NCBI GenBank assembly: GCA_964364855.1
Contig: CAYINU010000004.1
Span: 1 to 45,874, forward strand
Length of the DNA stretch: 45,874 bases
Direction: 5' to 3'
DNA from: an uncultured Candidatus Marinamargulisbacteria bacterium
Lineage (GTDB): Bacteria > Margulisbacteria > Marinamargulisbacteria > CAYINU01
A program made the translations under genes and the position numbers. This document shows positions 1 to 34,019 of the stretch, piece by piece; position 1 is the first letter of the stretch, and each line of letters starts with the position of its first letter. The notes under the pieces were generated by a model. The model was given only the letters and a program-made list of their open reading frames with translations. It was not told where the DNA came from and did not search any database.

Positions 1-1433
1 TCCATCCAGTAACATTGCGAATACTGATATCCCAGGCGCATCAGCCACGCCCGCGGATGATGACGGTTTTGCTTCCACCCGGGGCCTTTACCCAGGAAAA
101 TCTGCCGATTCACATCCCGCCCGATCCAGAACTTGCCGGCATAGGTGTGCCAGAACGACCACAGCGGACTTTGGGCGCAGTGCCGAACGTGAGATGGCAA
201 ATCCGCCAACCTCGGATCGCTGCCAATACTATGAGTAAAGTCTACGATGACAGAGGTATTGTAATTCTTACCCACAATAGGCTCCGTGCGGTGCCCGATA
301 CCAAAATAGGCCGTCAGCCGCAGTAACGCCCTAATGCGGGAACGGACTTGGGCCACCTGGGCATCCGGTGCCTGGGGTCCCAAGCTTTCGGCCTCATGCC
401 GGATCAATACGCTCGCACAATCCGTGAGAAATCCACGAAATGCCGGCAGGGCCACTGATCGCCCCAGGTATACCGAGGCGTGGGTCTCGTTTACCGGCTC
501 GTGGTATTTGTCCCGGTAGATGCAATAGGTCACCATATAGGCCGCCATATGCGTACTAGACAGCACGTAATTGAGCAGGTGCAAATGAAAGGGATTGATT
601 TGACGGGCCATGGTTCCCGACCCCAATTGCCAATGGTGGCGCAAATGACCGACCATCTGGCGATGGTCCCAAGAATGACCAAATAAATCGATAAACCCGC
701 TGATAACCAGCGTGACATGCCAAAAGAATTGCAAGGCAAAGTTCACCGCACGGACCGCTTTTTTGGCGGTATCCGATGCGTAGCCATCCACCGAAAAGTC
801 GGCGTCCAACAGCACCGCATCCAATCCCATTTTTTCCAAATAGCCCGCCGAGAAAACATCCCCGTGACTGGGATGACGAGTAGGTCTAGGGAGGGTGGCG
901 TCATAGCGAGCATCTGACAGAAATGCCGCATTGCACAATTCGGTATAAAAATTGTGAGCCGTCGGCACCACCAGCGGGATGGCGTCATCCGGATGGGCCA
1001 TTTTGGCTAGCGGGAGGTAGGTTCCCGTGAAGCATTCGTAGCCGGAGTTATGCAGGTAATGTGGGCGATGGTCCTGGGTAATATAGGGGGTGATATCGCC
1101 CCCCAGCACAAATTGCCGCAGCAGATGAACGTGGCTGTGCTCGCCAAACAGGTCCCTCCCGTCTGAGGCGATGCGGATCGGCTCCCCCCAAGGATGAGGG
1201 ATACCGCGCCGATGCATATCGGCCAACAGGGGCCAGAGATGGGGATCGTTTTCCCCCGTAGAATCCGGGCGGCTGCCCAACATGTCATAAAAAAAACCGT
1301 AGTGAGCAGACAGCTTTAAAATGAGGGACCTAAAGGCCTCGTACCCCTCACTGGTTTCTGCATATTCTCCTCGCCCTTGCTCAAAAATGCGAGGCAGCTG
1401 GCCGGTGCGGATAAAAGCGTGGAAAAAGTCCAA
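1..1433 (-). CDS. hypothetical protein, partial (runs off left edge), >=477 aa
   Basis: Absent from the ORF track. Manual translation gives an open frame from TTG at 1433 (MDFFHAFIRTGQLPRIFEQGRGEY...) to the window edge, starting 5 nt after the stop of 1439..1696. Alternative ATG at 1283. His/Trp/Tyr-rich; no family recognised. Confidence 0.75.
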   Translation of the reverse strand, partial: MDFFHAFIRTGQLPRIFEQGRGEYAETSEGYEAFRSLILKLSAHYGFFYDMLGSRPDSTGENDPHLWPLLADMHRRGIPHPWGEPIRIASDGRDLFGEHSHVHLLRQFVLGGDITPYITQDHRPHYLHNSGYECFTGTYLPLAKMAHPDDAIPLVVPTAHNFYTELCNAAFLSDARYDATLPRPTRHPSHGDVFSAGYLEKMGLDAVLLDADFSVDGYASDTAKKAVRAVNFALQFFWHVTLVISGFIDLFGHSWDHRQMVGHLRHHWQLGSGTMARQINPFHLHLLNYVLSSTHMAAYMVTYCIYRDKYHEPVNETHASVYLGRSVALPAFRGFLTDCASVLIRHEAESLGPQAPDAQVAQVRSRIRALLRLTAYFGIGHRTEPIVGKNYNTSVIVDFTHSIGSDPRLADLPSHVRHCAQSPLWSFWHTYAGKFWIGRDVNRQIFLGKGPGWKQNRHHPRAWLMRLGYQYSQCYWM

Positions 1434-1438
1434 GGATG

Positions 1439-1696
1439 TTACGAGCGCTTTTTTGCGCGGGCTAGCAAGTAGGATTCGTAGTCTTTCATCATGCTTCGGG
1501 TCATCTCATCCACCGTTTCGGACTGGCGGTCCAGATAGCGGCCCAGCTGGGCGATGCGTTGCCGGCCTTCGGCAATAATGCGCTCGCCTTCCGCGATCAC
1601 CTGGCGATGATGACGGGACGCCACCCAATTGCGGGCCATGATATTCATGGCCGTGATCATCAAAAATCCCCATCCGATAAACAAGAGAATTTTCAA
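1439..1696 (-). CDS. small membrane-anchored protein (N-terminal TM + amphipathic helix), 85 aa
   Basis: Hydrophobic N-terminus (ILLFIGWGFLMITAMNIMA) followed by a charged helical tail; fills the gap between co-oriented genes. Confidence 0.65.
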   Translation of the reverse strand: MKILLFIGWGFLMITAMNIMARNWVASRHHRQVIAEGERIIAEGRQRIAQLGRYLDRQSETVDEMTRSMMKDYESYLLARAKKRS

Positions 1697-1714
1697 AACG
1701 GCTGCCCCCCATGG

Positions 1715-2593
1715 CTATTCTAGCGTAACGGGACAGTCGATTTCTACTGATTCGCGTAAGGCCTGGCGAATCGCGGGGGCGATCTCCCCGCAGGCCGCAA
1801 CACGCTTGACCAGATGAAAGGGGAAATGTCGCATCATACCCAGCACATCCGCGGTCCGCTTCATCCGCACGGCCGTGGCCGCCAATCGATCAACGATTCC
1901 CAGGCACAGTTGAGGACTCGCGGCCGCCAGGCGTCCCGAATAGGCCAGCATCACTGAAATCTTGGTCAGCTGAGCCAACTGCCGGGCATTCTCCACAATG
2001 GCACCGGCTTTCACGACCTGGGAAATGGGCCCCTGCAATCGCAATACCACCCGTTCATAGTCGGTCCGGTGCCACGTGTCATAGCCAGCCACAAACCATT
2101 GCAATGTGGCCCGGTCTTTTGTTTCGCGTTGCACCTCCGTTGCCAAATACCGCGCGACCTTGTCATCGGGCAAGGGCAGGCCATTAAAGTCCGGCCATTT
2201 TTCGGCAAGCAGGGACTCGAAACCGCTGTAAATCAGCTGAGGCAGCGTATTGGCCAGCACCGCATCGACGTCGGCAATGGCATCCAGCGTGGCATGCCGC
2301 CACAAAAAGGGCATCCGGGCCAAAAACGCCGCCATCTGCTCCAACGGTGGATCCGGGAGCGTGGCCCATGCCGTCCAAATGTCGGCCCACCGAAACTCCC
2401 CGGATGAAAATGCTACGGCCCAGATGTCGGGCGGGCATTTGGACACAAACAAATGTCGCAGAATGGGGATACCCTTGACTTGGGTCCGGTACACCTCAAA
2501 CAACTCAGTAGGGTTCTCCACGGCAGCCTGGTCAAATACCGTGTAGGCCTCGTCAAGGAGCTGAGACAGAATTTCAGCCTGTTCGGCCGTCAT
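1715..2593 (-). CDS. hypothetical alpha-helical protein, 292 aa
   Basis: Long ORF whose ATG overlaps the end of the upstream gene; no motif recognised. Confidence 0.75.
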   Translation of the reverse strand: MTAEQAEILSQLLDEAYTVFDQAAVENPTELFEVYRTQVKGIPILRHLFVSKCPPDIWAVAFSSGEFRWADIWTAWATLPDPPLEQMAAFLARMPFLWRHATLDAIADVDAVLANTLPQLIYSGFESLLAEKWPDFNGLPLPDDKVARYLATEVQRETKDRATLQWFVAGYDTWHRTDYERVVLRLQGPISQVVKAGAIVENARQLAQLTKISVMLAYSGRLAAASPQLCLGIVDRLAATAVRMKRTADVLGMMRHFPFHLVKRVAACGEIAPAIRQALRESVEIDCPVTLE

Positions 2594-2876
2594 TGTTCGA
2601 GGTCGACCCTTCTTGCGGCGGCTGCTTTTGGATGTCCATCAAGTCGTCCTGGAGGCGCTTGAGGTCTCGTTCAACCTCTCGAGCCGATTGCACATATCGT
2701 TTTTGAACGTCGGCGAGGGCTTCCTCGGTAATTTTTTGATAGGCCTTAATATTTTGCGCCGTCTTCCAATCGTAATAGGCCCGCGCCCCAGACAAAAATA
2801 AAAAACACCCGGTCGGAATCAGGATAATCAATATGACAACGATGCCGAGAATAGTGAGGGCAGTCATAACTATCAT
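2574..2876 (-). CDS. small membrane-anchored coiled-coil protein, 100 aa
   Basis: Strong TM segment (LTILGIVVILIILIPTGCFLFL) then heptad-like KITEEALADVQKRYVQSAREVERDLKRLQDDL; directly downstream of the giant gene. Confidence 0.7.
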   Translation of the reverse strand: MIVMTALTILGIVVILIILIPTGCFLFLSGARAYYDWKTAQNIKAYQKITEEALADVQKRYVQSAREVERDLKRLQDDLMDIQKQPPQEGSTSNNDGRTG

Positions 2877-2912
2877 TAGTTTCGCTGATCATCGGTTAGA
2901 AGTCTATCCGAA

Positions 2913-5900
2913 TTAGGATCCCGGCACTTTTACAGAAACCGGCGAGGTGATGCGGTGAACCGTCTCATGCAGTTGTTTAAAAAAGGTTTCAAACCGCTCG
3001 ATGCGCTCGATAGCACTTAGCCCCGTCAATTTCTGTTTGTAGGTTGCAATGACCTGATCCAGCGGGCTTCGCCGTACGGCGGTGGACTGTCCATACGCCG
3101 CCATTCGAGCAGAATGACTGATTTCCTGTCTAAAGGCAGCCTGCACATCTTCTCCGACACCGGGTAGAAGCGGAGACCCGGTCATGGTGCGCAGTTCTCG
3201 CAATACCGCTTCGGCTTGGGCCGGTGTTTGGTGACGGGCATATTCGAGCAAAAAGGCGTTCAGATACGCTTCCTGCTTCTGATTGGAAGTAAGAAAAGAC
3301 AATGTGGGCCTTAATACATCGGCTACCTCTTGGGGATCCGCAATATTCACGGTCGGAATACCGTGAACCAATTCGACTGCAGCCCATTGACCCTCTACAG
3401 ACGCACTCATCCCACGGTTAATAAGGTCAGCTTTGAGAAGATTAAGTTTAGGTAAAACCACCCTTTGAAACGGCTCCTGACCCAAAATAGACTGCATGGC
3501 CAGCACGGCGCGGACAAAACGATCCGGGGCTTCCGCATCAGCGTTTGGACGGGCTAAGATACGGGCTAAGATATCGTAATAGCGCCTCACCCGGCTCTCG
3601 ATGAGCGGCTCATCGGCGGAATTACCGATCATCAGATGGGCCAAACATTTGGCGCGTTTCTCCTCATCCAAATTCAGGGTGGGGGTCCCTGGCTGTAGAC
3701 CGGGAGTATTAGGCGGTGCAGATAATAGCAATTCCGCCATGCGATCCCGTTGGGACTCCGAATAGAGCTCATGCGAGACACCCAAGAGCAGGTCGGGTTC
3801 GTCTTTGTCGGGCTTCAGAACGCTGGAGCTTAGAAATTCCAGATAGAAGGCGGGATGATGCTCGGCCAATTCATTGATGAGCTGCTCTTTGAACAGAATG
3901 GCATTTTTGGTTAGGTATTTTTGCTTTTCTTCCAGCAGCACGTAGCGAATGAGGCCGAACAGATGGTTTCGTTTATCGGTATTTTTTTTCGCCTCGTCAA
4001 TCAAACGGGTCAACAGTGGCGGAAAGCCGCCATTCATGGTTGCCCCCGCCATACTGTTTAGGGGAGTCCCCAAGTGCTTTTTTCCGGGACTAATCGGTGC
4101 CCGAAGCGCTGGCGCAAAGAAATTCCGAGACATCATCTTTGCCCAGTAATTATCGGTATCCGTGTTGAATGCCGGATGGAAGAACAAGTCGGGACAATTC
4201 TCAAAGATGTAGGAAATCGCCTTCCGTGTTTGCACCGGATCCAAGCCCGGTGTGGACTCGCGAACCCCAGCCAAAGACTGGAGAAAATGAGTCATCCACT
4301 CATTACCCAGTGGGTCAGCCTGGCTATCGGCAAGGGCAAAGTCAAACACACCTCGGATTAATTTGGCCAGCACATCCTGACCGTTAGTTAGATTTTGTGT
4401 ATTCACAAATGTCGTACGGTCATGGCCACTCAGATAATCCGCAGCGGCAGTGGATAGGGGGGTGACCGGAATCGGATGCTGTGCCTGCCCAGCTCCCAGT
4501 GCAGCCTGGTGGGCAGCCAACTCCTTTTGTTCGGTGAGCAATTGCCGCATGACGGTCAAGAGGCCATCCCGAGCCACGTCGTCTGACTTCATATACAAAA
4601 AGAGGTCTTTTAGCAACGCAGGATCGGCCACAACGGCGGTCAAAAAAGCCCCTTGCAGGCGCCGCGCATTGGCGTCCCTGCTTTGTGTCAAGGCCTGCCA
4701 TACCCGCGTCAATGCCCGCAAATCGCTGCCCATTAGACCCTCTAGCACTTGAACCTGATCATCTCCGGATTGCATCAGCAGGGGCACCAAGATCTCCTCA
4801 TCGGTCTCCCTAGCAGATACGGCCTTAGAAACGGCCAGAGTCACCTGCGACACGTCATGGGAGGCATTGCCCCGATGAACCACCTGACGCAACCCCATAT
4901 CCAACTGCTGCACGGCACGACGCGCACCTTCCTTTATCAGGGATTCGCGCAGGACGCCCAGCCCATGAACCTGCAAACGAGACGCCAGCCGTTCCAGCAG
5001 ACCCGGATATTGTCCAAAATCCATCTCGCTCACTGCCAACATTTGGCCCAGAGACGCGATCGCCAGATCATTCAGACTGCCCGCCGGCAATTCGCTGGCG
5101 GCGATAATGGCCTGCTGGACCAAGGTCTGAATACCGCTGCGATCCTGTTCCCCGCTGGATAGCAACGTCGCGTCATTCACATAGGTTTGTCTAACCAGGC
5201 TGGCAAATTTGCCGAGAAGCATCTGCACTCGGGCCTTGTCGGCCAAAGTAGCCTTGTCGCCGGACGCCTCTTTGGCTGCCTTTTGAAGCTCCGCATTGCA
5301 TTTGTCGAGTAATTTTTTGGCTACATATTGCCGGTCGGTCAGTGACAATTGGAGATAGGCCCTGCCCACAGCACCACCCAGCAGTTGGGCTTCAGCGTCC
5401 ATCTCTTCAGGCCGGTAGTACTGCAGACCGTCAGTCGTGATAAAGCGCGAAAAATCAGTGACCCAATTCGCAATCTGGGCATCCAGCCTCACTCGGTGAG
5501 CCACGTGAACGTCGTGAAACTCAAATTCGCTCAAGATGCGTTCTGTTAGCCGGTCATCCCCCAACTCCACAAACCGGTCCAGCAGTTTTTGCATGGTGTG
5601 AATTTGTTTTTGCCGGGTAGGTCCGTCAGGCGGCAGTTTGGCAAAAAGGCTACCATACCTTTCGACCACATAGTCCCGATGGAGGTCCACCTCATGCTGC
5701 AGCGCAGCAGATCCGCTCATGTCTCCTTTCCGGCTGAGGGCCATCAATACGCGATGAAATGCAACCGTCATGGGCATAAGTACAAGAGAGACCTTCCCTT
5801 CTTTTAAGAGGGACCCATGAAGATGATCAGGGTCATACATTCGGCGGCCCATATTGACCACGATTTCCTCTGCCGCGCGGGGGTCACGGGTATAAAGATC

Positions 5901-18197: not shown

Positions 18198-18215
18198 GCG
18201 TATTATCCCCTTTGA

Positions 18216-23161: not shown

Positions 23162-23225
23162 CTCAACCCCTTCTCACCAACGTGTTCGCACACGCACAAC
23201 GTGACCGACAATACTGCATTCCACG

Positions 23226-23254
23226 TTATCGTCAGATAGGCAAGCGAACTTGCA
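23226..23254 (-). promoter_or_regulatory. candidate sigma-28-family promoter for the coiled-coil gene
   Basis: Intergenic TGCAAG-N14-TGACGATAA, ~65 nt upstream of ATG 23161. Confidence 0.45.
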
Positions 23255-23260
23255 GGAAAA

Positions 23261-25500: not shown

Positions 25501-26387
25501 TACGAGACTTTGCTGATGAAGTCGGTAATCACCTTGTTGATCGTCGTCAGCGACGACAGCACCGCGTTATACCCCCGCTGTAGCTGAATGCCCAGCACGG
25601 TGATATCGGCAGGGTTCACGTTCGATGCCTCTGCCGCAGTGCCTTGGACGGTGGAAAAACCGGCCTCACCGGACCGGCCATACGCGATGGGGTTTCCCGA
25701 TCCTGTAGTAGGCGAATACGCACTGCCTTCGATGGGCGCGATCTTGGAGGGATTGGCAAACTTGGCCAAGCCCAGTTGGAATAACGCTGTCCCGGGAGGG
25801 ATGATGGTATTCGCTTCCTGGCGCTGGCGGGCAGTCTCTCTGGCATTGAAATTGGTCATCAGCACACCATCGGTTTCAAAACCGACATCAAAAAGGTCTT
25901 GCGTTGTCGGATCGAGAGTGATGGGAACCAATCTTGAGGTATCCGCCACACCGTTAACGACGCGGTATCCCATGACCGAACGACCGAAACTGTCTTGTAA
26001 CCGTCCCGACGAGTCAAAGGTAAAATCCGATTTTCGTTTGTAGTAAAACTGGCTGCCAATCGCGGCTTGGACCACGAAAAAGTCCTGACCGATAACAGCC
26101 GCATTTAACGCGCGTCCGGCCTTGATGGACCCTTGTGTAAAATTGATACCGGTCGGAATCAGAGTAAGCCCGGATGGAATGTTGGCCGTTGCAGGCGCAG
26201 CCACACCACCGTGGGGACTGGTACCGCCGGATACGGCCGTCATGGATTTGGAAAACAGAGACTGGAACGTGTAATCCGTTCCTTTATAGGCGTCGTCTTG
26301 GAAATGTTGTAAGTCAGCAGACAGGATTTGAATAGCATTGACGAAAGCCTGGAGGGAGTTTTGCGTCGTCGCGAACATATCAAACAT
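25500..26387 (-). CDS. divergent flagellar hook/basal-body rod protein (FlgE/FlgF/FlgG family), 295 aa
   Basis: FTQGSI...LNAAVIGQDFFVVQ...YYKRKSDFTFDSSGRLQDSFGRSVMGY; GLAKFANPSKI; C-terminal EASNVN...LQRGYNAVLSSLTTINKVI matches the LExSNVD...QRxYxANxxxIxTxD pattern. AGGAG RBS. Confidence 0.85.
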   Translation of the reverse strand: MFDMFATTQNSLQAFVNAIQILSADLQHFQDDAYKGTDYTFQSLFSKSMTAVSGGTSPHGGVAAPATANIPSGLTLIPTGINFTQGSIKAGRALNAAVIGQDFFVVQAAIGSQFYYKRKSDFTFDSSGRLQDSFGRSVMGYRVVNGVADTSRLVPITLDPTTQDLFDVGFETDGVLMTNFNARETARQRQEANTIIPPGTALFQLGLAKFANPSKIAPIEGSAYSPTTGSGNPIAYGRSGEAGFSTVQGTAAEASNVNPADITVLGIQLQRGYNAVLSSLTTINKVITDFISKVS

Positions 26388-26399
26388 GAAAGGTCTCCT

Positions 26400-28208
26400 T
26401 TAGGCCGCTTCGTCTACTGCGGGAGTCGAGATACGACGAACCGTTTGCCCCACTTGGATAAAAATATCCTCCTCTATACTAGACTCTTCCTTCAATCGGT
26501 TCAAGATTTGGATAAGCTGCTTACGCTTTCGGGACAAGCCGATCGTTTCAGACACTTCCATGCGCAGCTCCAGGTCATACAGCTCCTGGCGTACGGTATC
26601 AAACATTTCTCGGTTGGCTTTATTTTGCATGCTGGCTATCTCGGACTGGCTAACCGGTTCCCCCATATCAGACAGGCGGTTCAGGATGTCCGTCTTTTTG
26701 GTATTTAATATGTCAAAATCGTCGCCTTTGAGCTCAAACAGCGTGGCCTGCTCCAAACACAGTTTGTAAAACTCATCCAGCATGGCACCGCGGGCCAACA
26801 GCTGGCCCTCTTTTTCGACTTGGGACAGAACCTGATCTTCGATACCCAATTTGATCAGGCCGTTTTTGGCCCGGAAAATCTTAAAAGACAGCTCCAACCG
26901 CGCACGCAAACCGGGATTTAGGGCGCGGGCCATATAGAGCAGTCGCAATTTTTCTTCCAATTTTTCTTGGGCAGTCAAAATACGCACCTCAGGCGGCTTT
27001 TTTTGCTCTCCAGACTCGTGATCAAAAAAGCGCATCCCCCCCGAAGATACCCCCATACCCGCGGCCATGGCGGCAAAATCTGCCGCCCCCAGACTGTGGA
27101 TATAACGGGTTACCCGTTCCATTATGGGAGCGGTTAACACCGGTTCGCCCGTGATTTTTTCCGATATTTTTTGCAAATGCAGAATTTCCTTTTCAAACTT
27201 CGGCCAATCCTGGTCTCCGATATAACGGGAGAAAATATTGCCGGCTTCCTCGGCAACAAATCCTTTTAATTCGCTTTGAAACGTTTCATGTTCTTTGACA
27301 AACAATTGCTGGAAAGGCAATCGGCCAGCCGAGTACTCGTCCTCGGACTGGTAGGTATCCAGCATATGCTTCATGTCACGATAGGCCTGGACGCCTTCCG
27401 CATCACCTTTGGTATGGCGGGCAAAGTAGTAACGCATGACGTTTTTACGCACCAAATAGCTCAACGTATCCGAAGTCGCCTGTGCAACCCGAGTTTCCAC
27501 GGACACGCGCATGTCTTGGGTCACGCCCTGTTTTTCCATTTCCCCCCGTGAGGCGATGAGGGCTTTTTTATTTTTCTCATTTTTGTCCAGCAAATATCGG
27601 GCAAAGGCGGTGGAATAGGAGCGCACGGCCGTCTGCACATCGGACTTGGCAAATAGCCCTGTGGTGTCCCGACTGTCGTCGTGGCGGCTCATCTGCCGCT
27701 GTTGTTCCAGGGTCTGAGCGGTCCCCGGCATGGGAGCACTTTTGTCTTTGTGCGGGTTCCGAGCGCCTACCTGGCGGGAGTCAGACTCCTGGCGTTGCTT
27801 GCGTTGCAGCTGCTCGCTACTACCGGCCTGGGCTGAAACCGTCGCGGCATCCTTGTAATTTTCCTTTGATCCAAACCATTTCTTGGTTTCGGCTTCCAGC
27901 TCTTTTTCCAATTTTTTGCTCAAGACATTTTTTTGTTGCGTTTTCAGACGAGTCTGATCTTGCTCCGAAAAAATCTGGGCCAACGTGGCTTCCCGGTCAC
28001 CAAAAATCAGGTCCGAGGTCTTGTGCTCTTTTTTAGCCTGGGTTTTCTCTTCTTCTTCTTGTTTGGTTTGGCGCTGCAACAGCTGCTCCAGCGTCTGTGG
28101 CTTGGCATCTGCGTCAACCGATTTTTGCTTCTCAGGCCGAACGTCATCGTCATTCCATTTTCGCCCCTCAGAAACCCGCCCCGATGACCCCCCGAAGATT
28201 TCAGCCAT
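26400..28208 (-). CDS. hypothetical protein, charged disordered N-terminus + helical repeats, 602 aa
   Basis: Long ORF with an 8-nt overlap with the GT2 gene and a GAGG RBS; no family recognised. Confidence 0.8.
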   Translation of the reverse strand: MAEIFGGSSGRVSEGRKWNDDDVRPEKQKSVDADAKPQTLEQLLQRQTKQEEEEKTQAKKEHKTSDLIFGDREATLAQIFSEQDQTRLKTQQKNVLSKKLEKELEAETKKWFGSKENYKDAATVSAQAGSSEQLQRKQRQESDSRQVGARNPHKDKSAPMPGTAQTLEQQRQMSRHDDSRDTTGLFAKSDVQTAVRSYSTAFARYLLDKNEKNKKALIASRGEMEKQGVTQDMRVSVETRVAQATSDTLSYLVRKNVMRYYFARHTKGDAEGVQAYRDMKHMLDTYQSEDEYSAGRLPFQQLFVKEHETFQSELKGFVAEEAGNIFSRYIGDQDWPKFEKEILHLQKISEKITGEPVLTAPIMERVTRYIHSLGAADFAAMAAGMGVSSGGMRFFDHESGEQKKPPEVRILTAQEKLEEKLRLLYMARALNPGLRARLELSFKIFRAKNGLIKLGIEDQVLSQVEKEGQLLARGAMLDEFYKLCLEQATLFELKGDDFDILNTKKTDILNRLSDMGEPVSQSEIASMQNKANREMFDTVRQELYDLELRMEVSETIGLSRKRKQLIQILNRLKEESSIEEDIFIQVGQTVRRISTPAVDEAA

Positions 28209-29322
28209 GGGCAGTCCTCAGCACACGATCCAGTGCCTCTTCCAGCTCGGGTATAGTCGCGATTTGCCGGGCCATCAGATAGTGCTTTTTGGCCTCATCA
28301 GGATGGTGGGCTAGTTCAAAAATGAAACCCAAGTAAAAATGGGGCTGAAAAACCCGGTCATAGGGGTTGGACTCCAACAGCATATCGTACACGGGTGTTT
28401 TTTCGGTCAGTACTTTTTGAAAGGCATCGTGTGCGGCCTGAAATTCCCGCCGCTGCAAGGCCGTTTTTCCCTTGATGAGATACAATTCCTTGCTCAGTTT
28501 GCCAAAGCGTTTTTCGATCAGCGAGACAATGCGCCGGACCCGGTCGTAGCGACCCTGATCCAGCAAAAAGCGGCATAGATAGTAATAGTGGTTCACTTTC
28601 CGCACGCCTTCTCTTAGGGCTCGTACGGATTTGATGTAATAGTGCATCGCCTTTTTGTTATCCGAGAGCTGGCGGTACCGCTCGGCCATCTGCAAATACA
28701 TATAGGCATGGTCCCGCCATTGGTGGGGAGGGGTCTCGTTTTCGATCTGCTCATAAATGCGGACGTAGTTGCGTACCTTGCGGTCATGCAGTGCGTCGTG
28801 CACACCCTGATAATTGCCCCAATGGTATATGGCCGCGCCGCGGATTTGGGTACGGATGCTAAGCTCCTCTGGCGGATAGCCTGCCAATGACTCGTGAATA
28901 CGATCGATGTAGTGATATCCCTGGTCCGTGCGAAACAGTTTTTCCCGGAAGTTACACAATACGTTTTTTTCGAATCCGTCCAACGTATTTTGATAAACCG
29001 GCAACCAAAAAATGGTGCGATCCGTGTGCTTTACCAGCCGTTCCAGTTTTTTTAGCGAACGGGTTGAAATATAGTCATCGGCATCCAAAAACAACACCCA
29101 GGGCGTCTTGATTTTGGCCAATAAGGCATTCCGCGCCGCAGCAAAGTCCGCGGTCCACTTGAACGCGTGCACCGTCACTCCCCTCTCCTGCAAAAACGCT
29201 TGTGTGCCATCGGTTGACCCCGTATCGAGCACAACGATAGGCAAGCCGGATTTGAGCAAGGGTGGCAACGTGTGAGCCAAGATAAATGTTTCGTTTTTGG
29301 CCAGCATGGCAATGGTGATCAT
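28201..29322 (-). CDS. glycosyltransferase family 2 with C-terminal TPR repeats, 373 aa
   Basis: LAKNE, VLDTGSTDGT, WTADFAAARN, WVLFLDADD, RIHE, IYHWG; TPR-like helices (AYMYLQMAERY...KAMHYY, PHFYLGFIFELAHHPDEAKKHY). Confidence 0.9.
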   Translation of the reverse strand: MITIAMLAKNETFILAHTLPPLLKSGLPIVVLDTGSTDGTQAFLQERGVTVHAFKWTADFAAARNALLAKIKTPWVLFLDADDYISTRSLKKLERLVKHTDRTIFWLPVYQNTLDGFEKNVLCNFREKLFRTDQGYHYIDRIHESLAGYPPEELSIRTQIRGAAIYHWGNYQGVHDALHDRKVRNYVRIYEQIENETPPHQWRDHAYMYLQMAERYRQLSDNKKAMHYYIKSVRALREGVRKVNHYYYLCRFLLDQGRYDRVRRIVSLIEKRFGKLSKELYLIKGKTALQRREFQAAHDAFQKVLTEKTPVYDMLLESNPYDRVFQPHFYLGFIFELAHHPDEAKKHYLMARQIATIPELEEALDRVLRTAHG

Positions 29323-30296
29323 ACCGTTTCCCCCAGCGTCTGATCGGCTTGTTCGTAGTCCACTTTCTCACCGGGAATTTGATGAATTTTATGGATATCC
29401 TGCCCAACTTTGGTCATGCGCGCCAGAATGCGGTCCACGTATAGTTTAAGCTTATCGATTTGTTTTTTAATATCGGATTTGGTCAATGTCTCAACCGGCC
29501 CGCTCACCCAGTGCCGACGCGCACCTGGCTTGGGATCATCCAGCACGAAATGGATTTGGTATTCCTTGTAGTTTAGGTCATTTTGAAGCGGCATCAAAAT
29601 CTTCTGATATTGTTCGGCTTGGATATGCAGAATCGACTCCGGGCCATAGCACTCTTGCTTGGTTAGTTTCTGAACTTGTTCCATGAGGGTTTTTCGAACC
29701 TGCAAAAAGGTACGTTTTCTTCTGCGGTCCCGTCTGGAACTGGAAAAAATATCAACCAAAGCCAAATTATATTCGTTTTGGTCAAACAAGGCTTTGTTTT
29801 CAGCCAAGGCCTCGTCCAAGGCCTCTCGTTGGAGTTTGCCCAAGTCATCCGGAGTCGCGCCCAGCTTGAGCAGCAGCGTCATATCGCGACCTGCCCGCAA
29901 GGCCGCAAATTTGGCCAACAGCAAATTCATGGACCGGGAGGCCTTAAAACTTTCCTTGTATCGCTGACGAAGGGCTTCCAAATTATCCGCAAACCCGATC
30001 AGAAAAGACAAAGATCGCCATACCGCGGACGCATTGAACTTAAACGTCTCCAAAATCCCGGATGCCAGGTGGTCCTGAGCCTGGATTGTATACTGCCCCT
30101 GCTCGTCCTTATTCCAAGCCAGCCCCGCCTGCTTCATCTGCTCCATCGGGTGGATACGCGCCTGGTCTTTAAACGCGTCGAGCTGTGCCTGTTGCTCGGT
30201 TTGACTCTGTTTTTTTTCGGCCTCTGTGGGCGTAGCGCTATGCGAACGCCGGGCACCGTTGAGGTACGAAGAAGGCGAAAAAGAAAACTCGCTCAT
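29319..30296 (-). CDS. hypothetical helical protein, 325 aa
   Basis: GGGAGG RBS; Ser-rich N-terminus; ATGA overlap with the GT2 gene. Confidence 0.8.
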   Translation of the reverse strand: MSEFSFSPSSYLNGARRSHSATPTEAEKKQSQTEQQAQLDAFKDQARIHPMEQMKQAGLAWNKDEQGQYTIQAQDHLASGILETFKFNASAVWRSLSFLIGFADNLEALRQRYKESFKASRSMNLLLAKFAALRAGRDMTLLLKLGATPDDLGKLQREALDEALAENKALFDQNEYNLALVDIFSSSRRDRRRKRTFLQVRKTLMEQVQKLTKQECYGPESILHIQAEQYQKILMPLQNDLNYKEYQIHFVLDDPKPGARRHWVSGPVETLTKSDIKKQIDKLKLYVDRILARMTKVGQDIHKIHQIPGEKVDYEQADQTLGETV

Positions 30297-30317
30297 AAAC
30301 GCCCTCCCGGCGAGTCA

Positions 30318-33109
30318 TCACTCGCTTTTCTGATCACGCTCACGCTCAAGCCTGCGGAGCTCATCTGCCACTTTTTGACTGTGCTCACGTTCTTGTGCTT
30401 CCCGCCGGCGCGCAGCTTCAAAAGTCTGGGCACTTTGCCGATTCCGCCCATCTTCTTCAGCGACGGCCCGTTGCTCTGCTGCTTCCTCTTCTTTTTTTTC
30501 GGCTTCCTTCTGATCATAGCGGTCCACTTCACGCCGATACTCGGTCTGTCGGTTCCAGTTATACGCCGCTGTCATCAATTGTTCCTCAGCCACCCCTTGA
30601 CGAGAAATGTAGGTGAAGGCCGCCCCGGAAAACGCGGGGTTTTCCTGCACCTCAGGAACTTGACCGCGCCATCGTGTCTGGCTGCCGATCGGGGCTGCGG
30701 GAAACAAGTGTCCCCGCGCATCCGAATGAACATAGTAAGCGTTAAGCCGATTGGCTGAAAATGCACGGTCAAAATTGACGGATTGAATGGTACCTGTAGT
30801 CGTGTTCAACGCATATTCATCACCGTCCGGGAACGGCACGGCAACGGTCATCATGGCATTTGCATCCGTATTGCGGCCTTGTCCGTCCAAAATAGGAGGA
30901 CGTTCCGCAACCATCACAGGTGGCTGACGCCGTCCTTTGTCAAATGCATAGCCCACCCCGGTTCCGGCCATCGTCACATAGCCATCATACATAGGCATGG
31001 TGTTATCGGTAGTCAGAATGCTATGGGGAATAAAGTCCCAAGACAGATCATTAAATCCGGTTTTGGAGCCCAAAGACGCGGTATCAAACCCCAAAATAGG
31101 GGTACGCATTTTTTCCGCGCCGGAGTCCCGAGATGGACTACGAAGCAACTCGGCAATGGGTGCCAGTAGGTTTACGGCCTTGAGGCCTTTTTTTGAAATA
31201 TCCTGCATCGTTTCGGTCAGGTTCGCAAAGTTACCGTTGGCCGGAATTTTTCTGGCCTCTTCAAATACGGCGAATTGTTTTTGGTAGAGGGTTTCTAACT
31301 TACGCTTGATTTCGATGTGGTTGTTTGCCGACATATCGGTCGATTCGGAGGAAAGATCATTATAGGCATCTTGGGCGTCTTTGACTGCTTTCCCCAACCC
31401 ACGGTCATAGCCTGTTGCCGCCCCACCCAGATCCGCCAATTGCCTCTCGATTTCACGTTTTCTACTGAGCGGCGTAGACGAGCTGGCAGCTTCCTGGTTT
31501 AAGATGGATACATAGTGGTCATAAGCGGCCTTTGGCGCGGCACTCACGGTACCCAGCGCCAGCTCATCCATCATATATTTAAAGCCCGCCTTAACCGCAG
31601 CCCGTTGGAACAGCATCGCCTCCGGTCCCTCGGTATAGGAGGTACTAGCAACCCTTACAGTGACTCCGCCAGACTCTGTCTTTGTAACCGCGCCCCACCC
31701 GTAACTGTCGTTTGCTAGGGTATCAAAGGCGTTAAATGTCGTATGGGCCGTTTCAAAAAGCAGCATATTGTAAAACGAGGCCGTCGGATCGGTTTGCTTC
31801 GCCACGGTATCGTACCAGTTTTTGATGGACTCCGATTGACGGCGCGTGACTTTGAGCATCTGATCCCAGTCAGAGGCAGATGCGGTTTTGGTCATGACAC
31901 GCAAAACCGAGCCGGTGGGTACGTTCGCATAGTCGGACGCGTCCAACTCGGCCACTGATAAAGAGGATCCCGCCGGCGCCTCCAGGGGAAGATGTTTGGC
32001 AGGCCCCAATATCCGCCGATAGGCTTCCAGCACCCGCCGTTTGCTTTCTAGTAACGATTTTAGAAAATAGTAAAACTTTTCGCCATCCGGCACGCCATTG
32101 GCAATCGTGTCCGAGTCGCGGATCGCGCTCTCTAATCCTAAGTCTTTGTTTTTTACCCATTTGGACCAGGCACCAGACTGAATGATTTCAAAATAATTGG
32201 GCGCTTGGGTTTCGACGGTATCCTTCAAATAGGGATGGGCACCACCGGCACCGAAATTTTCCCAAATGTCGGGGTGAGCCGCGTCGACGACCCACGTTCC
32301 AGAAAAGGGATTGACCACGACATGTGGGATCCCAGAAACGTTATGAAAACCATCTCTGTCAAAACCAAACTTATTGTCCTTCATCAGAACGGCCTGACGA
32401 CTAATCGTGTCCATCACCTGATTGAGCTTGTTCCAATCTGCAGCCACGGCAGCCGCACCCTCAGTATCGACGGCAAATGCGGAGTTATATCCCGAAGACA
32501 CGCCAAAGTCCCACTTCGACCGATTGCTATCGGAAATCTCCAAACTGTTCCACGTGTTTAAGGTATTGTATTGGGGATTCTCGTACCCACCCGCAATACC
32601 ACGAAAAGGATTGATATTATCCAAACGGCCATAGCTGGTTCCCTCGTAGGAATACCCACCCAAGATAGGGGTTGAAGAGTGTATGGAGCTGAAACGCCCG
32701 TGCCCATAATAATTCCCGCGGCCATCGTTGCCAAAGCTCCCGTGGATGTCGTTGTCATCTGCAAAATATCGCGCAACCAAGTTCGGGATTTCCGGAAGGC
32801 CAGGAATAAAATTCCGGGCAGGTGCCGGCAATTCCGGACTGAGGTTCTCGCTGTCCGGGCGAAGCGCCAAAAAGTGCGCATCCGTCCACCATGCAAAGTT
32901 ATTTTGCAAAAAACCCTGATAATACGACCCTGTCATTCCTTTTGCAGGATCGTTGGCAATGAGAGCCACGCGTTCCGGAGAGAAAAACTTGAGCAACTCC
33001 GTCCCGAAATGGGTGGTTACCGTCGCGGCTTTAAAGGCATCCGCATTACCGGTTTCTTTTACCTGCGGCGGGGGGGGGCGATTGGAAAAAAGACGGGGCG
33101 AAGTCCCAT
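30318..33109 (-). CDS. large hypothetical protein (~930 aa if the G9 tract at 33070-33078 is G10; 892 aa from TTG 32996); frameshifted as assembled
   Basis: ATG 33109 with an AAAAGGTGG RBS reads MGLRPVFFPIAPPRRR-stop. One extra base in the tract joins it to the long frame (...PPPPQVKETGNADAFKAATVTTHFGTELLKFF). Gly/Asn/aromatic-rich body and a highly charged C-terminal helix. Confidence 0.75.
33070..33078. repeat. G9 homopolymer (C9 on the coding strand) at the frameshift site
   Basis: acctgcggc GGGGGGGGG cgattgg read directly from the sequence. Confidence 0.9.
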
Positions 33110-33143
33110 GGCTATTCCACCTTTTCTGAAGGAAGATCTCGCA

Positions 33144-33440
33144 CTAGCTAAAGTTACCCAAGCGGCTTTCTAGCTTTTTAACCATATCTAATGCTTCTGT
33201 CACGGTCGATAAGCGGGTACTTAACAAATTAACAGCGATACCAAAACCACTGGCGCCTGACAATGTCGACAAATCATACTCGTTACTATCCACTGTTACC
33301 TTGCCGCTGCCTTGGGCAAGCTTGAGCGCGGCATCTTGCAAGACGCCGATCAATGACTCGACACCTTGCGTAACCGAATTAAACAAATCAGCGTGGGTCA
33401 AAGCGGATTGACGAAATTGAATGTTTTCTGAAATTGACAT
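33144..33440 (-). CDS. small helical-hairpin protein, 98 aa (needle/inner-rod-like architecture, inferred)
   Basis: Start re-called to ATG 33440 after a very strong RBS (AGAAAGGAGG); helix, DLSTLSG turn, then C-terminal amphipathic helix LSTVTEALDMVKKLESRLGNFS. Confidence 0.75.
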   Translation of the reverse strand: MSISENIQFRQSALTHADLFNSVTQGVESLIGVLQDAALKLAQGSGKVTVDSNEYDLSTLSGASGFGIAVNLLSTRLSTVTEALDMVKKLESRLGNFS

Positions 33441-33480
33441 GTGGAGTTCCTCCTTTCTTTTAGAAATTAAAACGCCCAAC

Positions 33481-33502
33481 GGGGGAGGGCTCGCCCTCCC
33501 CC
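33481..33502 (-). terminator. intergenic GC-rich hairpin (partial terminator or mRNA-stabilising stem-loop)
   Basis: Perfect inverted repeat GGGGGAGGGC-tc-GCCCTCCCCC, 19 nt after the stop of 33522..33884; only a weak U tract follows (GTTGGGCGTTTT). Confidence 0.55.
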
Positions 33503-33521
33503 ATCGAAGCCAACGCTATGT

Positions 33522-33884
33522 CTATGAAGACATGCGTTTACCGCCTTCCTTAACGGCGTTAATCACAAGGGTAGCGGCAGATTTGCCAACTTCCAGAACA
33601 GCCGTGGCTGTCGATACTTCCAGACCGGTCTTGGAATAGAATTCCAAGTTACCTTCCTGGGATTTGTTCGTGGTCGTGTCCGTAAAAGCCGTTGCCGTCG
33701 CACTAGGGCCTTTGAGCATCTTGGCAATGGCCTCGTCGGCCGGTTCCGCCAGCTTGGCTACCAGTCCAGAGGTGGCACCGGCAAGCGTAATATCAATTTC
33801 TTTCCCCACATCACCAGTCCCTTTGGCCACGTCACCGCTTTCGAACGTCTTTCCTGATGAGTCTTTAAAATATTCAAATGGCAT
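33522..33884 (-). CDS. small Thr/Ala/Gly/Lys-rich protein, 120 aa (candidate major filament subunit, inferred)
   Basis: Start re-called to ATG 33884 after GGAGG; first gene of the minus-strand cluster; no Cys/Trp/His; C-terminal amphipathic helix TATAVLEVGKSAATLVINAVKEGGKRMSS. Confidence 0.8.
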   Translation of the reverse strand: MPFEYFKDSSGKTFESGDVAKGTGDVGKEIDITLAGATSGLVAKLAEPADEAIAKMLKGPSATATAFTDTTTNKSQEGNLEFYSKTGLEVSTATAVLEVGKSAATLVINAVKEGGKRMSS

Positions 33885-33908
33885 TTTTTCCTCCAAATTT
33901 AAGTAAGT

Positions 33909-33934
33909 AAAGTAAGCGCCTTTGTGCTTACTTT
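33909..33934 (-). promoter_or_regulatory. 5'-UTR hairpin
   Basis: AAAGTAAGC-N8-GCTTACTTT, a 9-bp inverted repeat just upstream of the RBS, next to AAGTA/AAGT direct repeats. Confidence 0.4.
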
Positions 33935-33990
33935 TGAAAAATCATTTTTTACGGTTCCACCTCCCTTGCAATTTTTATCTAACAGCAAGA

Positions 33991-34019
33991 GTATCGGCAC
34001 CCTTTTTTTAATAGATGCA
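33991..34019 (-). promoter_or_regulatory. candidate sigma-28-family promoter for the minus-strand cluster
   Basis: TGCATC-N14-TGCCGATAC; the -10 GCCGATAC is one mismatch from FliA GCCGATAA / SigD GCCGATAT. Confidence 0.5.

Follow-up and report, generated by a model that had tools for sequence, protein, structure and literature searches.

A putative late-gene locus of a flagellin-less, flagellar-type export machine in Candidatus Marinamargulisbacteria

The injectisome, as Abby and Rocha reportedly set out in 2012, derives from the flagellum: it is an export machine that gave up motility and acquired new parts to export. In Buchnera aphidicola, hook-basal-body complexes and the type III export machinery are reported to be highly expressed, with a role not yet known (PMC8109811). 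Lysobacter enzymogenes OH11 is nonflagellated and lacks a functional fliC; its remaining flagellar type III secretion system (T3SS) is expressed and needed to secrete FlgD and toxic proteins and has thus been co-opted for microbe interaction (PMC7688988).

Here, we analyzed a stretch of 45,874 nucleotides (the window; contig CAYINU010000004.1) from the draft genome of an uncultured member of the class Marinamargulisbacteria (GCA_964364855.1, here G000). We assign a probability of about one half to the reading that the late genes of a flagellin-less, flagellar T3SS-type, nonrotating machine have their locus in the window and that this machine exports the proteins of a conserved gene module. A first-pass annotation had proposed a flagellum-derived, injectisome-like contact system, an interpretation that as a whole is partly supported.

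Gene order and the upstream module

The window carries 19 to 20 co-oriented and tightly packed minus-strand genes from base 3 to base 33896, in agreement with the roughly 20 counted before, and from 34088 the plus strand encodes the housekeeping genes metK, cinA, recA, rny, ymdB, and lptB/F/G. The 19 long minus-strand open reading frames (ORFs) measure 124, 111, 892, 325, 373, 602, 295, 116, 290, 428, 1057, 80, 216, 299, 5094, 100, 292, 85, and 477+ aa, the last being truncated at the contig end. The start/stop overlaps previously seen at 29319-29322, 28201-28208, 25500, and 2574-2593 are real, and those at 24300-24310 and 19697-19700 hold with internal ATG starts counted in the translations; the uncertain one at 19022/19025 requires an 87-aa ORF in an alternative frame. 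The features are as follows.

33992..34022, minus strand: predicted promoter of sigma-28 type (own-class variant, CAATGCAT-N17-CCGATA), with the S90 gene 96 nt downstream
33522..33896, minus strand: S90, 124 aa, aligning with the S90a/S90b families of relatives
33475..33508, minus strand: terminator-like hairpin, 15-pair stem and then a T-run, directly after S90
33144..33440, minus strand: S110, 98 aa if translated from an ATG preceded by AAAGGAGGAA, assigned by the S110 profile
30318..32996, minus strand: B850, 892 aa, family profile E value of 6e-5
29319..30296, minus strand: M280-S80 fusion, 325 aa, matched by both the M280 and the S80 profiles
28201..29322, minus strand: GT2 glycosyltransferase with C-terminal TPR, 373 aa, Pfam Glycos_transf_2 (54.7 bits) plus TPR
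26400..28208, minus strand: U600, 602 aa, profile A1
25500..26387, minus strand: flgE, predicted short hook protein, 295 aa, from NCBIfam FlgEFG_subfam and synteny
25150..25500, minus strand: D116, 116 aa, following flgE in closer relatives, family profile E value of 1.6e-10
24300..25172, minus strand: 290-aa protein with 5 cysteines, at the same place in G005 (tblastn E value of 1e-33)
23261..24310, minus strand: APH-family (kinase-fold) protein, Pfam APH 30.3 bits against a cutoff of 23.2
23226..23253, minus strand: second sigma-28-type promoter candidate, GCAAGTTC-N12-GACGATAA, with the 1057-aa gene 65 nt downstream
19988..23161, minus strand: 1057-aa coiled-coil-like protein, lineage specific, from the ORF listing
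19697..19939, minus strand: 80-aa membrane protein, from the ORF listing and hydrophobicity scan
19143..19700, minus strand: protein of about 185 aa, from the ORF listing
18216..19115, minus strand: 299-aa protein with one hydrophobic segment, from the ORF listing and hydrophobicity scan
2913..18197, minus strand: giant protein, 5094 aa, with an N-terminal transglutaminase-like cysteine protease domain
3..2876, minus strand: four trailing genes of 100 aa (membrane), 292 aa, 85 aa (membrane), and 477+ aa, from the ORF listing

Upstream of flgE lie S90, S110, B850, M280 plus S80, GT2-TPR, and U600, a module that is found phylum-wide in conserved order and that appears to represent new protein families without detectable relatives in Pfam or PDB sequences. 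S90 has no cysteine, signal peptide, or hydrophobic segment and by eye reads as a helix, a Gly/Ser-rich loop, and a helix; relatives carry one to three tandem copies of S90a/S90b genes. It matched nothing in Pfam or PDB sequences and is a candidate for the major exported subunit. The S110 ORF, for which the ORF list gives an alternative TTG start at 33479 (111 aa), matches its family profile (E value of 3.9e-6) and no PDB sequence. Both small proteins picked out in the first-pass annotation are real conserved families, S110 occurring in 39 of the 57 loci examined. B850 is likewise present in 39/57 loci, with a highly variable length (307 to 1103 aa); it lacks cysteine and a signal peptide, is N/G/S/T/Y-rich with a charged C-terminal tail, has no match in Pfam or PDB sequences, and is a candidate distal or adhesive component. 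M280 (51/57 loci) and S80 (48/57) are separate genes in most relatives, and the fused ORF found no match among PDB sequences. Pfam confirmed the GT2-TPR gene named earlier, and the gene between S80 and U600 in other classes is likewise GT2 plus TPR, pointing to an ancestral module member. The best-conserved member is U600, with a charged low-complexity N terminus and a C-terminal stretch of roughly 400 aa that is conserved; profile A1 matches 128/146 phylum genomes, only 317 matches at an E value of ≤1e-3 were found among 1.84 billion representatives, and Pfam, PDB sequences, and the Atlas returned no match.

Cysteine makes up 0 to 0.46% of the seven module families compared to 0.88% of neighboring ORFs. 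A low cysteine content is also compatible with charged, coiled-coil proteins of the cytoplasm. Signal peptides are absent from the module proteins, and a Kyte-Doolittle scan found no hydrophobic segments in S90, S110, B850, M280, and U600.

The hook gene and its machine

The FlgE/G-like gene is the hook gene of a flagellin-less flagellar-type T3SS machine. Its product passes NCBIfam FlgEFG_subfam (90.1 bits against a cutoff of 70.25), scores slightly below the Pfam cutoffs for FlgE/F/G D1 (26.4 bits) and Flg_bbr_C (21.3 bits), and reached 24.4 bits, above the cutoff, in the genome scan. The orthologue in G085 stands in the order FliK-FlgD-[flgE]-FliM-FliN-FliO-FliP, followed by four ORFs sized like FliQ, FliR, FlhB, and FlhA, and near-identical JGI/IMG copies carry the name "flagellar hook protein FlgE." The gene had been called an orphan, which is true only inside the window, since rod genes are present on contig C25.

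Genes for the basal body and the export apparatus lie on other contigs, as had been anticipated for the export gate and ATPase. FlhA lies outside the window; FliP, FliM, FliN, FliO, FliQ, FliR, and FlhB are on contigs C77, C117, and C17; and G000 also encodes FliI (627 bits), FliF, FliE, FlgF-like, FlgG, FlgA, FlgH, FlgI, and a FlgC-size ORF with the rod C-terminal domain. The P/L rings and the hook are thus retained. FlgD and FliK were not recognized in G000, where two ORFs at the usual position match nothing, and the genome scan found no further proteins with the axial C-terminal domain. A search of G000 with Flagellin_N found no flagellin (best E value of 0.15).

Short-hook FlgE occurs in 137 of 146 phylum genomes and flagellin, marking the true flagellum, in 15, while the short hook and U600 are each retained in all 72 of the 72 high-quality genomes. 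Three flagellated genomes hold two FlhA and two FlgI copies each, and two nonflagellated ones hold one of each. The FlhA tree has two clades (100/100 support), and the G000 copy is 62 to 77% identical to those of the clade holding the short-hook operons and 39 to 41% identical to the other. This points to the flagellin-less machine being a phylum-wide deep paralogue of the true flagellum, which few members carry.

In most own-class loci that hold both genes, flgE is directly downstream of U600 (12 nt after it in the window), and the adjacency is retained across many families of the class. Module order is kept in relatives, but outside the own class the module and flgE are not adjacent, so that the linkage is class specific and sigma-28 control is the sole phylum-wide tie. 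From these gene orders, flgE appears to have been joined onto a phylum-wide module in the own class.

Promoters and downstream genes

The sigma-28-like motifs noticed earlier come down to two credible sites, 33992-34022(-) and 23226-23253(-), and loose scanning of the entire window turns up many chance matches. The bipartite motif of the first site recurs upstream of the first S90 gene in five own-class loci and gave 6 sense and 0 antisense hits in 450 kb compared to about 0.2 expected by hand estimate. It has three genome-wide hits in G000 (at most one mismatch) compared to about 1.7 expected, so the promoter is supported by positional conservation and not by rarity. For the other classes, GCAAGTTT-N10-14-CCGATA gave 26 sense and 0 antisense hits (about 0.2 expected, hand estimate) spread over 16/27 module loci, and the core motif of the module promoters also occurs inside canonical flagellar late clusters (7/9 loci of flagellated members). 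Module genes in other classes thus seem to carry sigma-28-type promoters like those of the flagellar late operon, and the earlier picture of a hook gene combined with small and large nonflagellar proteins under such promoters is supported. The second site is one of only two in the genome with the exact GCAAGTT box, and it is plausible but not proven as a promoter because the loose pattern gave 21 hits compared to about 12 expected.

The hairpin after S90 was listed first in the terminator scan, and the fold of 33436-33530 had a z score of -3.6. Strong hairpins (minimum free energy of -20 kcal/mol or lower within 60 nt after the stop) follow 9/22 S90 genes; elsewhere in the module, they follow 0/42 S110, 0/39 B850, 0/8 B330, 1/67 M280, 1/48 S80, and 2/53 U600 genes. 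A gene with its own promoter and a terminator-like hairpin shows the pattern of abundant subunit genes. S90, S110, B850, flgE, and further genes are covered by RNA-library contigs identical in sequence to the window, as are parts of the 1057-aa gene; these are assembled contigs from one study, with DNA carry-over possible, and show presence only.

Downstream of flgE, the D116 family is present in 10 loci and had no Pfam hit above the cutoff. The 290-aa protein, without a Pfam hit, is probably cytoplasmic given its five cysteines. The APH-family gene probably starts at the ATG at 24310 and has homologues at the same place in G005 and G003. The 1057-aa protein had no Pfam hit above the cutoff and no homologue in the relatives' loci examined, and of the three genes in 18216..19939, only the 299-aa protein has a relative, a weak one in G049. 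In the giant protein, the protease-like domain spans about aa 215 to 410 (bases 16968-17555), with GDCED, GH, and D invariant or nearly so across 10 aligned copies. Its profile matches PDB chains 4fgo, 4u65_E, and 3isr (E values of 2e-4 to 0.1), the latter two deposited as putative cysteine proteases. The hydrophobic hairpins attributed to the giant are only partly borne out: there are six hydrophobic 19-mers on the Kyte-Doolittle scale, with strong ones at aa 807-825 and 1423-1441, but no arrangement in adjacent pairs. In G049, a giant of 7291 aa comes immediately behind flgE-D116, and only the protease-like domain is common to the two giants. None of the four trailing genes matched a family or had a homologue in the relatives' loci examined.

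Readings of the locus and known systems

On the preferred reading of a nonrotating exporter, the short hook would be built first, and the module proteins would then be exported by the apparatus as its late substrates. The abundant subunit of a nonflagellin distal fiber would be S90, possibly together with S110, and B850 would be a variable tip or adhesin. GT2-TPR enzymes glycosylate flagellins, and the one encoded here may glycosylate S90/S110 or B850. U600 and M280 could be conserved accessory or cap-like parts, and further cargo or surface partners could include the coiled-coil protein and the protease-domain giant encoded downstream. As no FliG C-domain, MotA/B, or flagellin was found in G000, the structure would be static and serve attachment or secretion instead of swimming. 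Against this reading, no fold or sequence ties the module proteins to axial, needle, cap, or chaperone families; hhalign gave ≤15% probability against the FlgK-, FlgL-, FliC-, FliD-size, FliW-, and CsrA-size families of flagellated relatives and was negative for the FliK- and FlgD-position proteins. The module also occurs in members with a true flagellum and is therefore not a simple flagellin replacement.

The lack of homology to any T3SS substrate would suit a phylum-specific module that is not exported by the T3SS at all but is, for example, cytoplasmic, regulatory, or envelope related, shares FliA-type promoters, and has flgE next to it by rearrangement. The distance between module and flgE in all other classes, the charged and, by eye, helical U600 and M280, which resemble many cytoplasmic proteins, and the retention of the module beside a normal flagellum also fit. 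We consider this unlikely, since the flgE-U600 adjacency survives across many own-class families, the promoters share their type with those of the flagellar late operon, the module has GT2-TPR as a fixed partner, B850 is N/G/S/T/Y-rich and free of cysteine and signal peptide, and the S90 gene has its own promoter and terminator-like hairpin.

A rotating flagellum with an S90/S110 filament in place of flagellin, its rotor and stator genes missed in the draft genome, is quite unlikely. The absence of FliG and MotAB was judged from a draft in 137 contigs that is 94.5% complete; 59/146 genomes, among them most own-class ones, match MotB_plug and 64/146 match FliG_C; and the S90 promoter-terminator layout with a GT2-TPR partner recalls flagellin genes. 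However, searches of G000 found neither FliG_C nor MotB_plug. FliG_N matches the ORF behind fliF only weakly (16.4 bits), and the two MotA_ExbB matches are 209- and 224-aa frames, one in a run resembling tol-pal by ORF sizes. G000 and the three nearest families (G003, G005, and G006) all lack MotB_plug, with FliG_C absent or in a 478-aa frame. G049 and G056 hold two to three FliG_C/MotB_plug matches each, and of the 10 ORFs in the gene cluster around these matches in G049, only 1 was matched in G000. Within the last 19 families listed (88 genomes), MotB_plug was found in 16 genomes, 12 of them also with flagellin.

The contact system first proposed, with small helical proteins as needle and larger ones as translocators into a host or prey membrane, is very improbable. 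A flagellar-type export machine without flagellin, tandem copies of proteins of about 90 to 110 aa resembling helical hairpins, small genomes throughout the phylum (1 to 3 Mb), and a nearby giant with a protease-like domain would be in keeping with it. The injectisome homology did not hold up: no YscC-type secretin was found in G000 (best score of 107.5 bits against a cutoff of 238.45), and FlhA, FlhB, FliP, FliI, and FliF all score higher on flagellar NCBIfam models than on Sct models, FliF outscoring SctJ in its own case. The small proteins matched no needle family in Pfam or PDB sequences, and the expected translocator-like hairpins are missing from S90, S110, B850, M280, and U600. A decaying relic of a lost flagellum without present function, as the missing flagellin, stator, and FliG C-domain of G000 might suggest, is hardly credible with intact, tightly coupled ORFs, conserved promoters, RNA-library contigs, and a hook and U600 that no high-quality genome has lost.

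GT2-TPR flagellin glycosyltransferases such as Listeria GmaR, which combine a GT2 catalytic domain with TPR as the enzyme in the window does, are similarly encoded among late appendage genes, but G000 has no detected flagellin as the substrate. The machine shares with the bacterial flagellum the export gate, ATPase, MS-ring, FliM/N, rod, P/L rings, and FlgE-family hook, with flagellar models scoring best, and late genes under sigma-28-type promoters. It differs in that flagellin, the FliG C-domain, MotB, and further axial C-terminal-domain proteins were not detected in G000, in that its late genes are seven families without detectable relatives, and in being a paralogue in its own right, found alongside a true flagellum in some relatives. 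The injectisome embodies the same idea of a flagellum-derived exporter with motility lost and new exported parts, but here there is no homology to Sct-specific parts and no needle or translocator match, and the hook and P/L rings remain.

Like Buchnera, this is a small-genome bacterium keeping a flagellar basal body and export machinery; the Buchnera system is a reduced remnant of a single ancestral flagellum, for which no secreted proteins are reported to be identified, in contrast to the phylum-spread paralogue and conserved, coregulated module of candidate substrates described here (PMC8109811). The cargo in Lysobacter consists of ordinary enzymes encoded elsewhere (PMC7688988), whereas the candidate cargo here consists of new, dedicated families encoded together with the hook gene in a single sigma-28-driven locus. 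If our reading is true, this locus may show a second route from the flagellum to another bacterial device.

Layout of the locus

The minus-strand locus that fills most of the window is, with a probability of roughly 0.85, part of a flagellar-type system and its sigma-28-type regulon, and the best-supported reading is that it represents the late-gene locus of a flagellin-less flagellum derivative, which in this lineage probably does not rotate. The window (bases 1-45874) is part of the 52-kb contig C4 in a draft genome, here G000, of 1.88 Mb on 137 contigs that is 94.5% complete. The ORF listing places 19 long ORFs between bases 3 and 33896, every one on the minus strand and most of them overlapping or separated by a few bases, and from 34088 on the plus strand carries the housekeeping genes metK, cinA, recA, rny, ymdB and lptB/F/G. 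Only three of the minus-strand proteins were recognised by Pfam:

28201-29322, minus strand: GT2 glycosyltransferase with TPR repeats
25500-26387, minus strand: FlgE/F/G-type axial protein (weak in Pfam; NCBIfam FlgEFG_subfam)
23261-24310, minus strand: APH-fold kinase-like protein

Because the ORF layout and the Pfam and NCBIfam placements agree, the first-pass annotation described the sequence correctly as a run of co-oriented, coupled ORFs including a GT2-TPR gene and a FlgE/G-like gene. A further candidate gene is a small alternative-frame ORF (19022-19285, minus strand) that overlaps the 3' end of the 216-aa ORF, would encode 45 aa if begun at an internal ATG near 19159 and shows a hydrophobic stretch by eye. 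On the plus strand (36900-40833), the gene order cinA-recA-rny-ymdB, which is typical of Firmicutes and relatives, here adjoins lptB/F/G, in a genome with LPS-transport genes.

A paralogous flagellar apparatus kept across the phylum

The axial protein of 295 aa, here called the short hook, reached 90.1 bits against the FlgEFG_subfam cut-off of 70.25 and none of the FlgE equivalog cut-offs in NCBIfam. We regard it as the hook protein FlgE on positional grounds: in the FliK-FlgD-X-FliM operon of G085, a distant member of the phylum with a one-contig genome, the short-hook orthologue lies in the order FliK-FlgD-hook-FliM-FliN-FliO-FliP, and the next four ORFs have the sizes of FliQ, FliR, FlhB and FlhA. 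The same type of operon, FliM-FliN-FliO-FliP-X-FliQ-FliR-FlhB-FlhA-sigma, is found in G000 divided among contigs C77, C117 and C17, with homologues of FliQ, FliR and FlhB on C117. The export gate and ATPase, which had been predicted to be encoded outside the window, were located on other contigs as FlhA (FHIPEP 817 bits; NCBIfam FlhA 769.3, just under the cut-off of 772.1), FlhB (NCBIfam 382.5 against 349.25), FliP (249.6 bits; NCBIfam 236.1 against 217.45), FliQ, FliR and FliI (TIGR01026 627 bits against 379.5; FliI_clade2 648.1 against 629.8). The FliI gene is flanked by ORFs that correspond to FliH and FliJ in size alone. Contig C25 encodes, by Pfam, a FlgF-like protein, FlgG, FlgA, FlgH, FlgI, a FliA-like sigma factor, a FlgC-size protein for which only the rod C-terminal domain is seen, FliE and FliF (TIGR00206 130.4 against 129.75). 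G000 thus holds the export gate FlhA/FlhB/FliP/FliQ/FliR, the ATPase FliI, the MS ring, rod, P and L rings and hook. Two candidates for a FliA-family sigma factor are present: a 254-aa protein on C25 with FliA_WhiG as its best model (137.9 bits against a cut-off of 189.6) and a 296-aa protein on C17 that adjoins flhA and matches in region 4 only. In the short-hook operons of G000 (C77, locus L062, 55-1017) and the relatives G069 and G001 (L034, L033), fliP and fliQ are separated by an ORF of 320-420 aa with no Pfam match.

Among 146 genomes of the phylum, of about 1-3 Mb each and with G000 as the sole member of its order, a short hook of about 270-300 aa was found in 137, including 72 of the 72 high-quality genomes, and Flagellin_N in only 15. 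The three flagellated genomes tested carry two FlhA and two FlgI, and the two non-flagellated ones carry one of each. A maximum-likelihood tree of 11 FlhA sequences resolves two clades, both supported at 100/100 and joined by long branches; the G000 protein clusters with copies from short-hook operons (62-77% identity, against 39-41% to the other clade), and the other clade includes a G069 copy that has a long FlgE, a true FliG and MotB in its neighbourhood. From the hook and flagellin counts, the position in G085, the FlhA and FlgI copy numbers and the FlhA tree, and hence at the level of sequence comparison, the window hook is part of an old flagellum paralogue that nearly the whole phylum has kept, almost always without flagellin.

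The upstream module, its promoters and the downstream genes

Upstream of flgE lies a module of new protein families, which were defined by clustering and profile searches in a comparison set of 57 loci from relatives:

Module families in the window and their occurrence among the 57 loci
S90: ORF of 124 aa; 16 loci
S110: ORF of 111 or 98 aa; 39 loci
B850: ORF of 892 aa; 39 loci, and a short form (B330) in 8
M280: fused with S80 in a 325-aa ORF; 51 loci
S80: fused with M280 in a 325-aa ORF; 48 loci
U600: ORF of 602 aa; 53 loci

The order small proteins, S110, B850, M280, S80, GT2-TPR, U600 recurs throughout the phylum. Since other classes also carry GT2+TPR in the interval between S80 and U600, the glycosyltransferase is, as judged from gene order, an ancestral module member. 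The U600 profile matched 128 of the 146 phylum genomes, 72 of the 72 high-quality ones among them, and only 317 proteins among 1.84 billion representatives. Only in the class of G000 does flgE directly follow U600 (with a gap of 12 nt in the window), and in closer relatives it is then followed by D116, a family 3' of flgE. In the flagellated genome G058, U600 stands tail-to-tail with a canonical MotA-MotB-FliL-FliN-FliP-FliQ-FliR-FlhB operon. In other classes (L068-L093), a very large gene (at least 1100-1750 aa, often cut at the edge of the stretch compared) usually stands at the head of the module, and at several loci a sigma-28-type motif lies 5' of this gene. These leading giants form a family of their own with no homologue found in G000, and an equation with the giant protein of the window was rejected for lack of similarity. 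In G085, a gene for a '23S rRNA-intervening sequence protein' (PF05635, 104 bits; L068:6512-6871, plus strand) lies among the small genes of the module.

The sigma-28 consensus is TAAAGTTT-N11-GCCGATAA, also given as AAGTTT-N11/12-(C)CGATAA. Module loci from other classes gave 26 sense hits for the motif GCAAGTTT-N10-14-CCGATA, spread over 16 of 27 loci, and none in antisense, against about 0.2 expected by chance on a hand estimate; most sites precede a small gene, M280, U600 or the leading giant, and more than half are within 100 nt of a start. The motif core, AAGTTT-N11/12-CCGATA, agrees with the sigma-28 consensus. It is also found at 7 of 9 loci within the true late flagellar gene clusters of flagellated members; four of these have it 43-54 nt 5' of a gene for about 100 aa that precedes ORFs of FlgN, FlgK and FlgL size, names that were assigned by size, order and clustering alone. 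A variant specific to the class of G000, CAAT[G/A]CAT-N15-19-CCGATA, precedes the first S90 gene at 5 loci, with 6 hits in sense and none in antisense. Module loci thus carry promoters of the sigma-28 (FliA) type, and two sites fall in the window:

33992-34022, minus strand: own-class sigma-28-type variant promoter, upstream of S90
23226-23253, minus strand: near-consensus phylum motif, ahead of the gene for a 1057-aa protein

A loose sigma-28 pattern was not enriched when used alone, with 21 hits in the G000 genome against about 12 expected and a similar outcome in the window scan. Apart from 23226-23253, an exact GCAAGTT box together with CGATAA occurs at just one place in the genome (contig C21, 5788-5815, plus strand), directly upstream of two large ORFs (5821-8610 and 8499-11702; 929 and 1067 residues from stop to stop) of no known family, whose starts are unlike signal peptides and which may be further members of the sigma-28-type regulon. 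Directly 3' of the S90 gene lies a hairpin of 15 pairs with a T-run, and such hairpins were found 3' of 9 of 22 S90 genes and almost never after other module genes. RNA-library contigs from a single aquifer study align to portions of S90, S110, B850, U600, flgE, D116 and the coiled-coil gene, in most cases with no mismatch, and one contig spans S110 and S90; these matches are read as presence only, and uncovered parts and depth differences carry no evidence.

By profile comparison, the module families are without detectable kin among known proteins. No Pfam match was obtained for the module proteins, no match among PDB sequences for the U600, M280, B850, S110 and S90 profiles, no usable ESM Atlas match for U600 and no hhalign probability above 15% against 20 clusters from the canonical loci of flagellated relatives, which include proteins of FlgK, FlgL, flagellin, FliD, FliW and CsrA size. 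Sizes and order are like those of FlgK/FlgL/FliD/FliC/FliS/FlgN/FliW/CsrA, yet with hhalign at 15% or less we rejected the view of the module as diverged forms of these proteins. That U600 and M280 are FliK and FlgD was likewise discarded, as hhalign was negative and other classes carry FliK and FlgD beside the module.

The module proteins have no hydrophobic segment and no start resembling a signal peptide, and cysteine makes up 0-0.46% of the seven module families against 0.88% of neighbouring ORFs. That they are exported late substrates which together form a distal structure is, in our estimate, an even bet; S90 and S110 would then be its abundant subunits, B850 a variable tip, GT2-TPR a modifying enzyme and U600 and M280 accessory parts. 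It is doubtful, but conceivable, that the module is not exported at all and has regulation alone in common with the flagellar-type machine.

Downstream of the hook, D116, a 290-aa protein and the APH-like protein are common to G000 and its nearest relatives, and the 1057-aa coiled-coil protein, small membrane proteins and a 5094-aa giant are lineage specific. The sole recognisable part of the giant is N-terminal:

16968-17555, minus strand: transglutaminase-like cysteine protease domain with GDCED...GH...D conserved

The Cys-His-Asp triad of a transglutaminase core is present, each residue being fully or almost fully conserved across 10 aligned copies. The domain matched the PDB sequences 4fgo, 4u65_E (deposited as a putative cystine protease) and 3isr (a transglutaminase-like putative cysteine protease) with E values of 2e-4 to 0.1, and Pfam Transglut_core at 18.1 bits, below the cut-off of 23. 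In the relative G049, a 7291-aa giant is encoded directly 3' of flgE-D116 and has the protease domain alone in common with the giant of the window. Copies of the domain recur at or near the N termini of giants in the window and at L027, L028, L046, L060, L031, L043, L044 and L058; genes with it adjoin the hook or module locus in several relatives, and once it is repeated within one protein.

Motor and filament parts not found, and what the machine is not

Several parts of a motile flagellum were searched for in the G000 assembly, 94.5% complete, and not found. Flagellin_N had no match (best E value, 0.146), FliG_C none at an E value of 0.1 or below, and a 165-aa ORF after fliF gave a weak FliG_N signal of 16.4 bits against a cut-off of 25. 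The divergence or absence of flagellin and stators that the first-pass annotation had named as support is borne out, as MotB_plug also had no match and the two MotA_ExbB matches are frames of 209 and 224 aa, the size of TolQ/ExbB and not that of MotA; one of them sits in a gene run that resembles tol-pal as judged by ORF sizes. Searching with the FliK- and FlgD-position proteins of other classes in phmmer gave no match in G000, and the two ORFs at the syntenic FlgD/FliK place had no Pfam match and no hhalign similarity. The rod and hook domain Flg_bbr_C had just three matches in the genome, none of them FlgK-sized.

That the locus serves genuine motility through a new filament, with the motor genes having been missed, is distinctly unlikely. 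In favour of this reading, many members of the same class have FliG_C and MotB_plug matches, but in the relative examined these lie amid a cluster of genes of no known family, nearly all without a match in G000, and two to three matches occur in some relatives. Such genomes with 2-3 matches each to FliG_C and MotB_plug are many in this class (e.g., G049 contig C47, L113, 1285-9939; G049 contig C40, L115; G056 contig C18, L114). On G049 contig C47, the matches are in one cluster with a MotA-size ORF between them, the other genes are without known family and 1 of 10 ORFs has a match in G000. Clusters of this kind may represent a different, stator-driven system that has no relation to the hook-basal body.

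The idea of an injectisome-like translocation device fared worse, and we hold it to be very improbable. For each of FlhA, FlhB, FliP, FliI and FliF, the flagellar NCBIfam model scored above the Sct model (e.g., FlhA 769 against 660 for SctV and FliF 130 against 60 for SctJ). The best match in G000 to the YscC-type secretin SctC (TIGR02516) was 107.5 bits against a cut-off of 238.45, and the three secretins of the genome are generic. The needle- and translocator-like substrates (SctF, SctE/SctB) that had been suggested in the window were not recovered, in that the S90 and S110 profiles gave no needle match among PDB sequences and Pfam and the module proteins have no hydrophobic segment that a translocator would show. 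The likeness of S90 to a needle protein had been seen by eye, and neither PDB sequences nor Pfam supported it. As far as sequence models classify it, the machine falls within the flagellar type III secretion family and outside the injectisome family, but it fails on the filament, rotor and stator features. That the locus is a mere relic is hardly credible.

Comparison with known systems

Beyond the reading of the window as the late-gene locus of a flagellin-less derivative, we consider it rather unlikely, although worth stating, that the system is a third, independent exaptation of the flagellum. In this scheme an ancient paralogous hook-basal body, retained by almost all members of a phylum with small genomes and no longer rotating in this lineage, would bear on its short hook a fibre or needle of S90/S110, new helical-hairpin subunits of about 90-110 aa, glycosylated by a dedicated GT2-TPR enzyme and tipped by a hypervariable B850. 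It would serve to attach to partner cells or to deliver into them, perhaps together with the giant protease-domain proteins. If the module proteins are exported parts, the locus would provide an independent case for the evolution of extracellular structures on a type III secretion chassis, would define new families of self-assembling or adhesive proteins and would open a functional route to the way of life of an uncultured lineage with small genomes.

To our knowledge, the injectisome is the sole established lasting conversion of a flagellum into a different organelle. Our literature search found no description of the module or of a flagellin-less paralogous system. Reduced and re-used flagella are described for Buchnera (PMC8109811) and Lysobacter (PMC7688988), and a preprint notes that Cloacimonadota, UBA9089 and FCPU426 are without about 35% of ancestral flagellar genes (PMC13277936). 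The re-used flagellar export machines of Buchnera (PMC8109811) and Lysobacter enzymogenes (PMC7688988) are the nearest precedents, but neither comes, in the sections of these papers that we draw on, with a dedicated conserved late-gene module or a phylum-wide paralogue. What appears to be new here is a second flagellar-type machine that is phylum-wide and without flagellin, together with a dedicated, putatively sigma-28-driven set of seven families without known matches.
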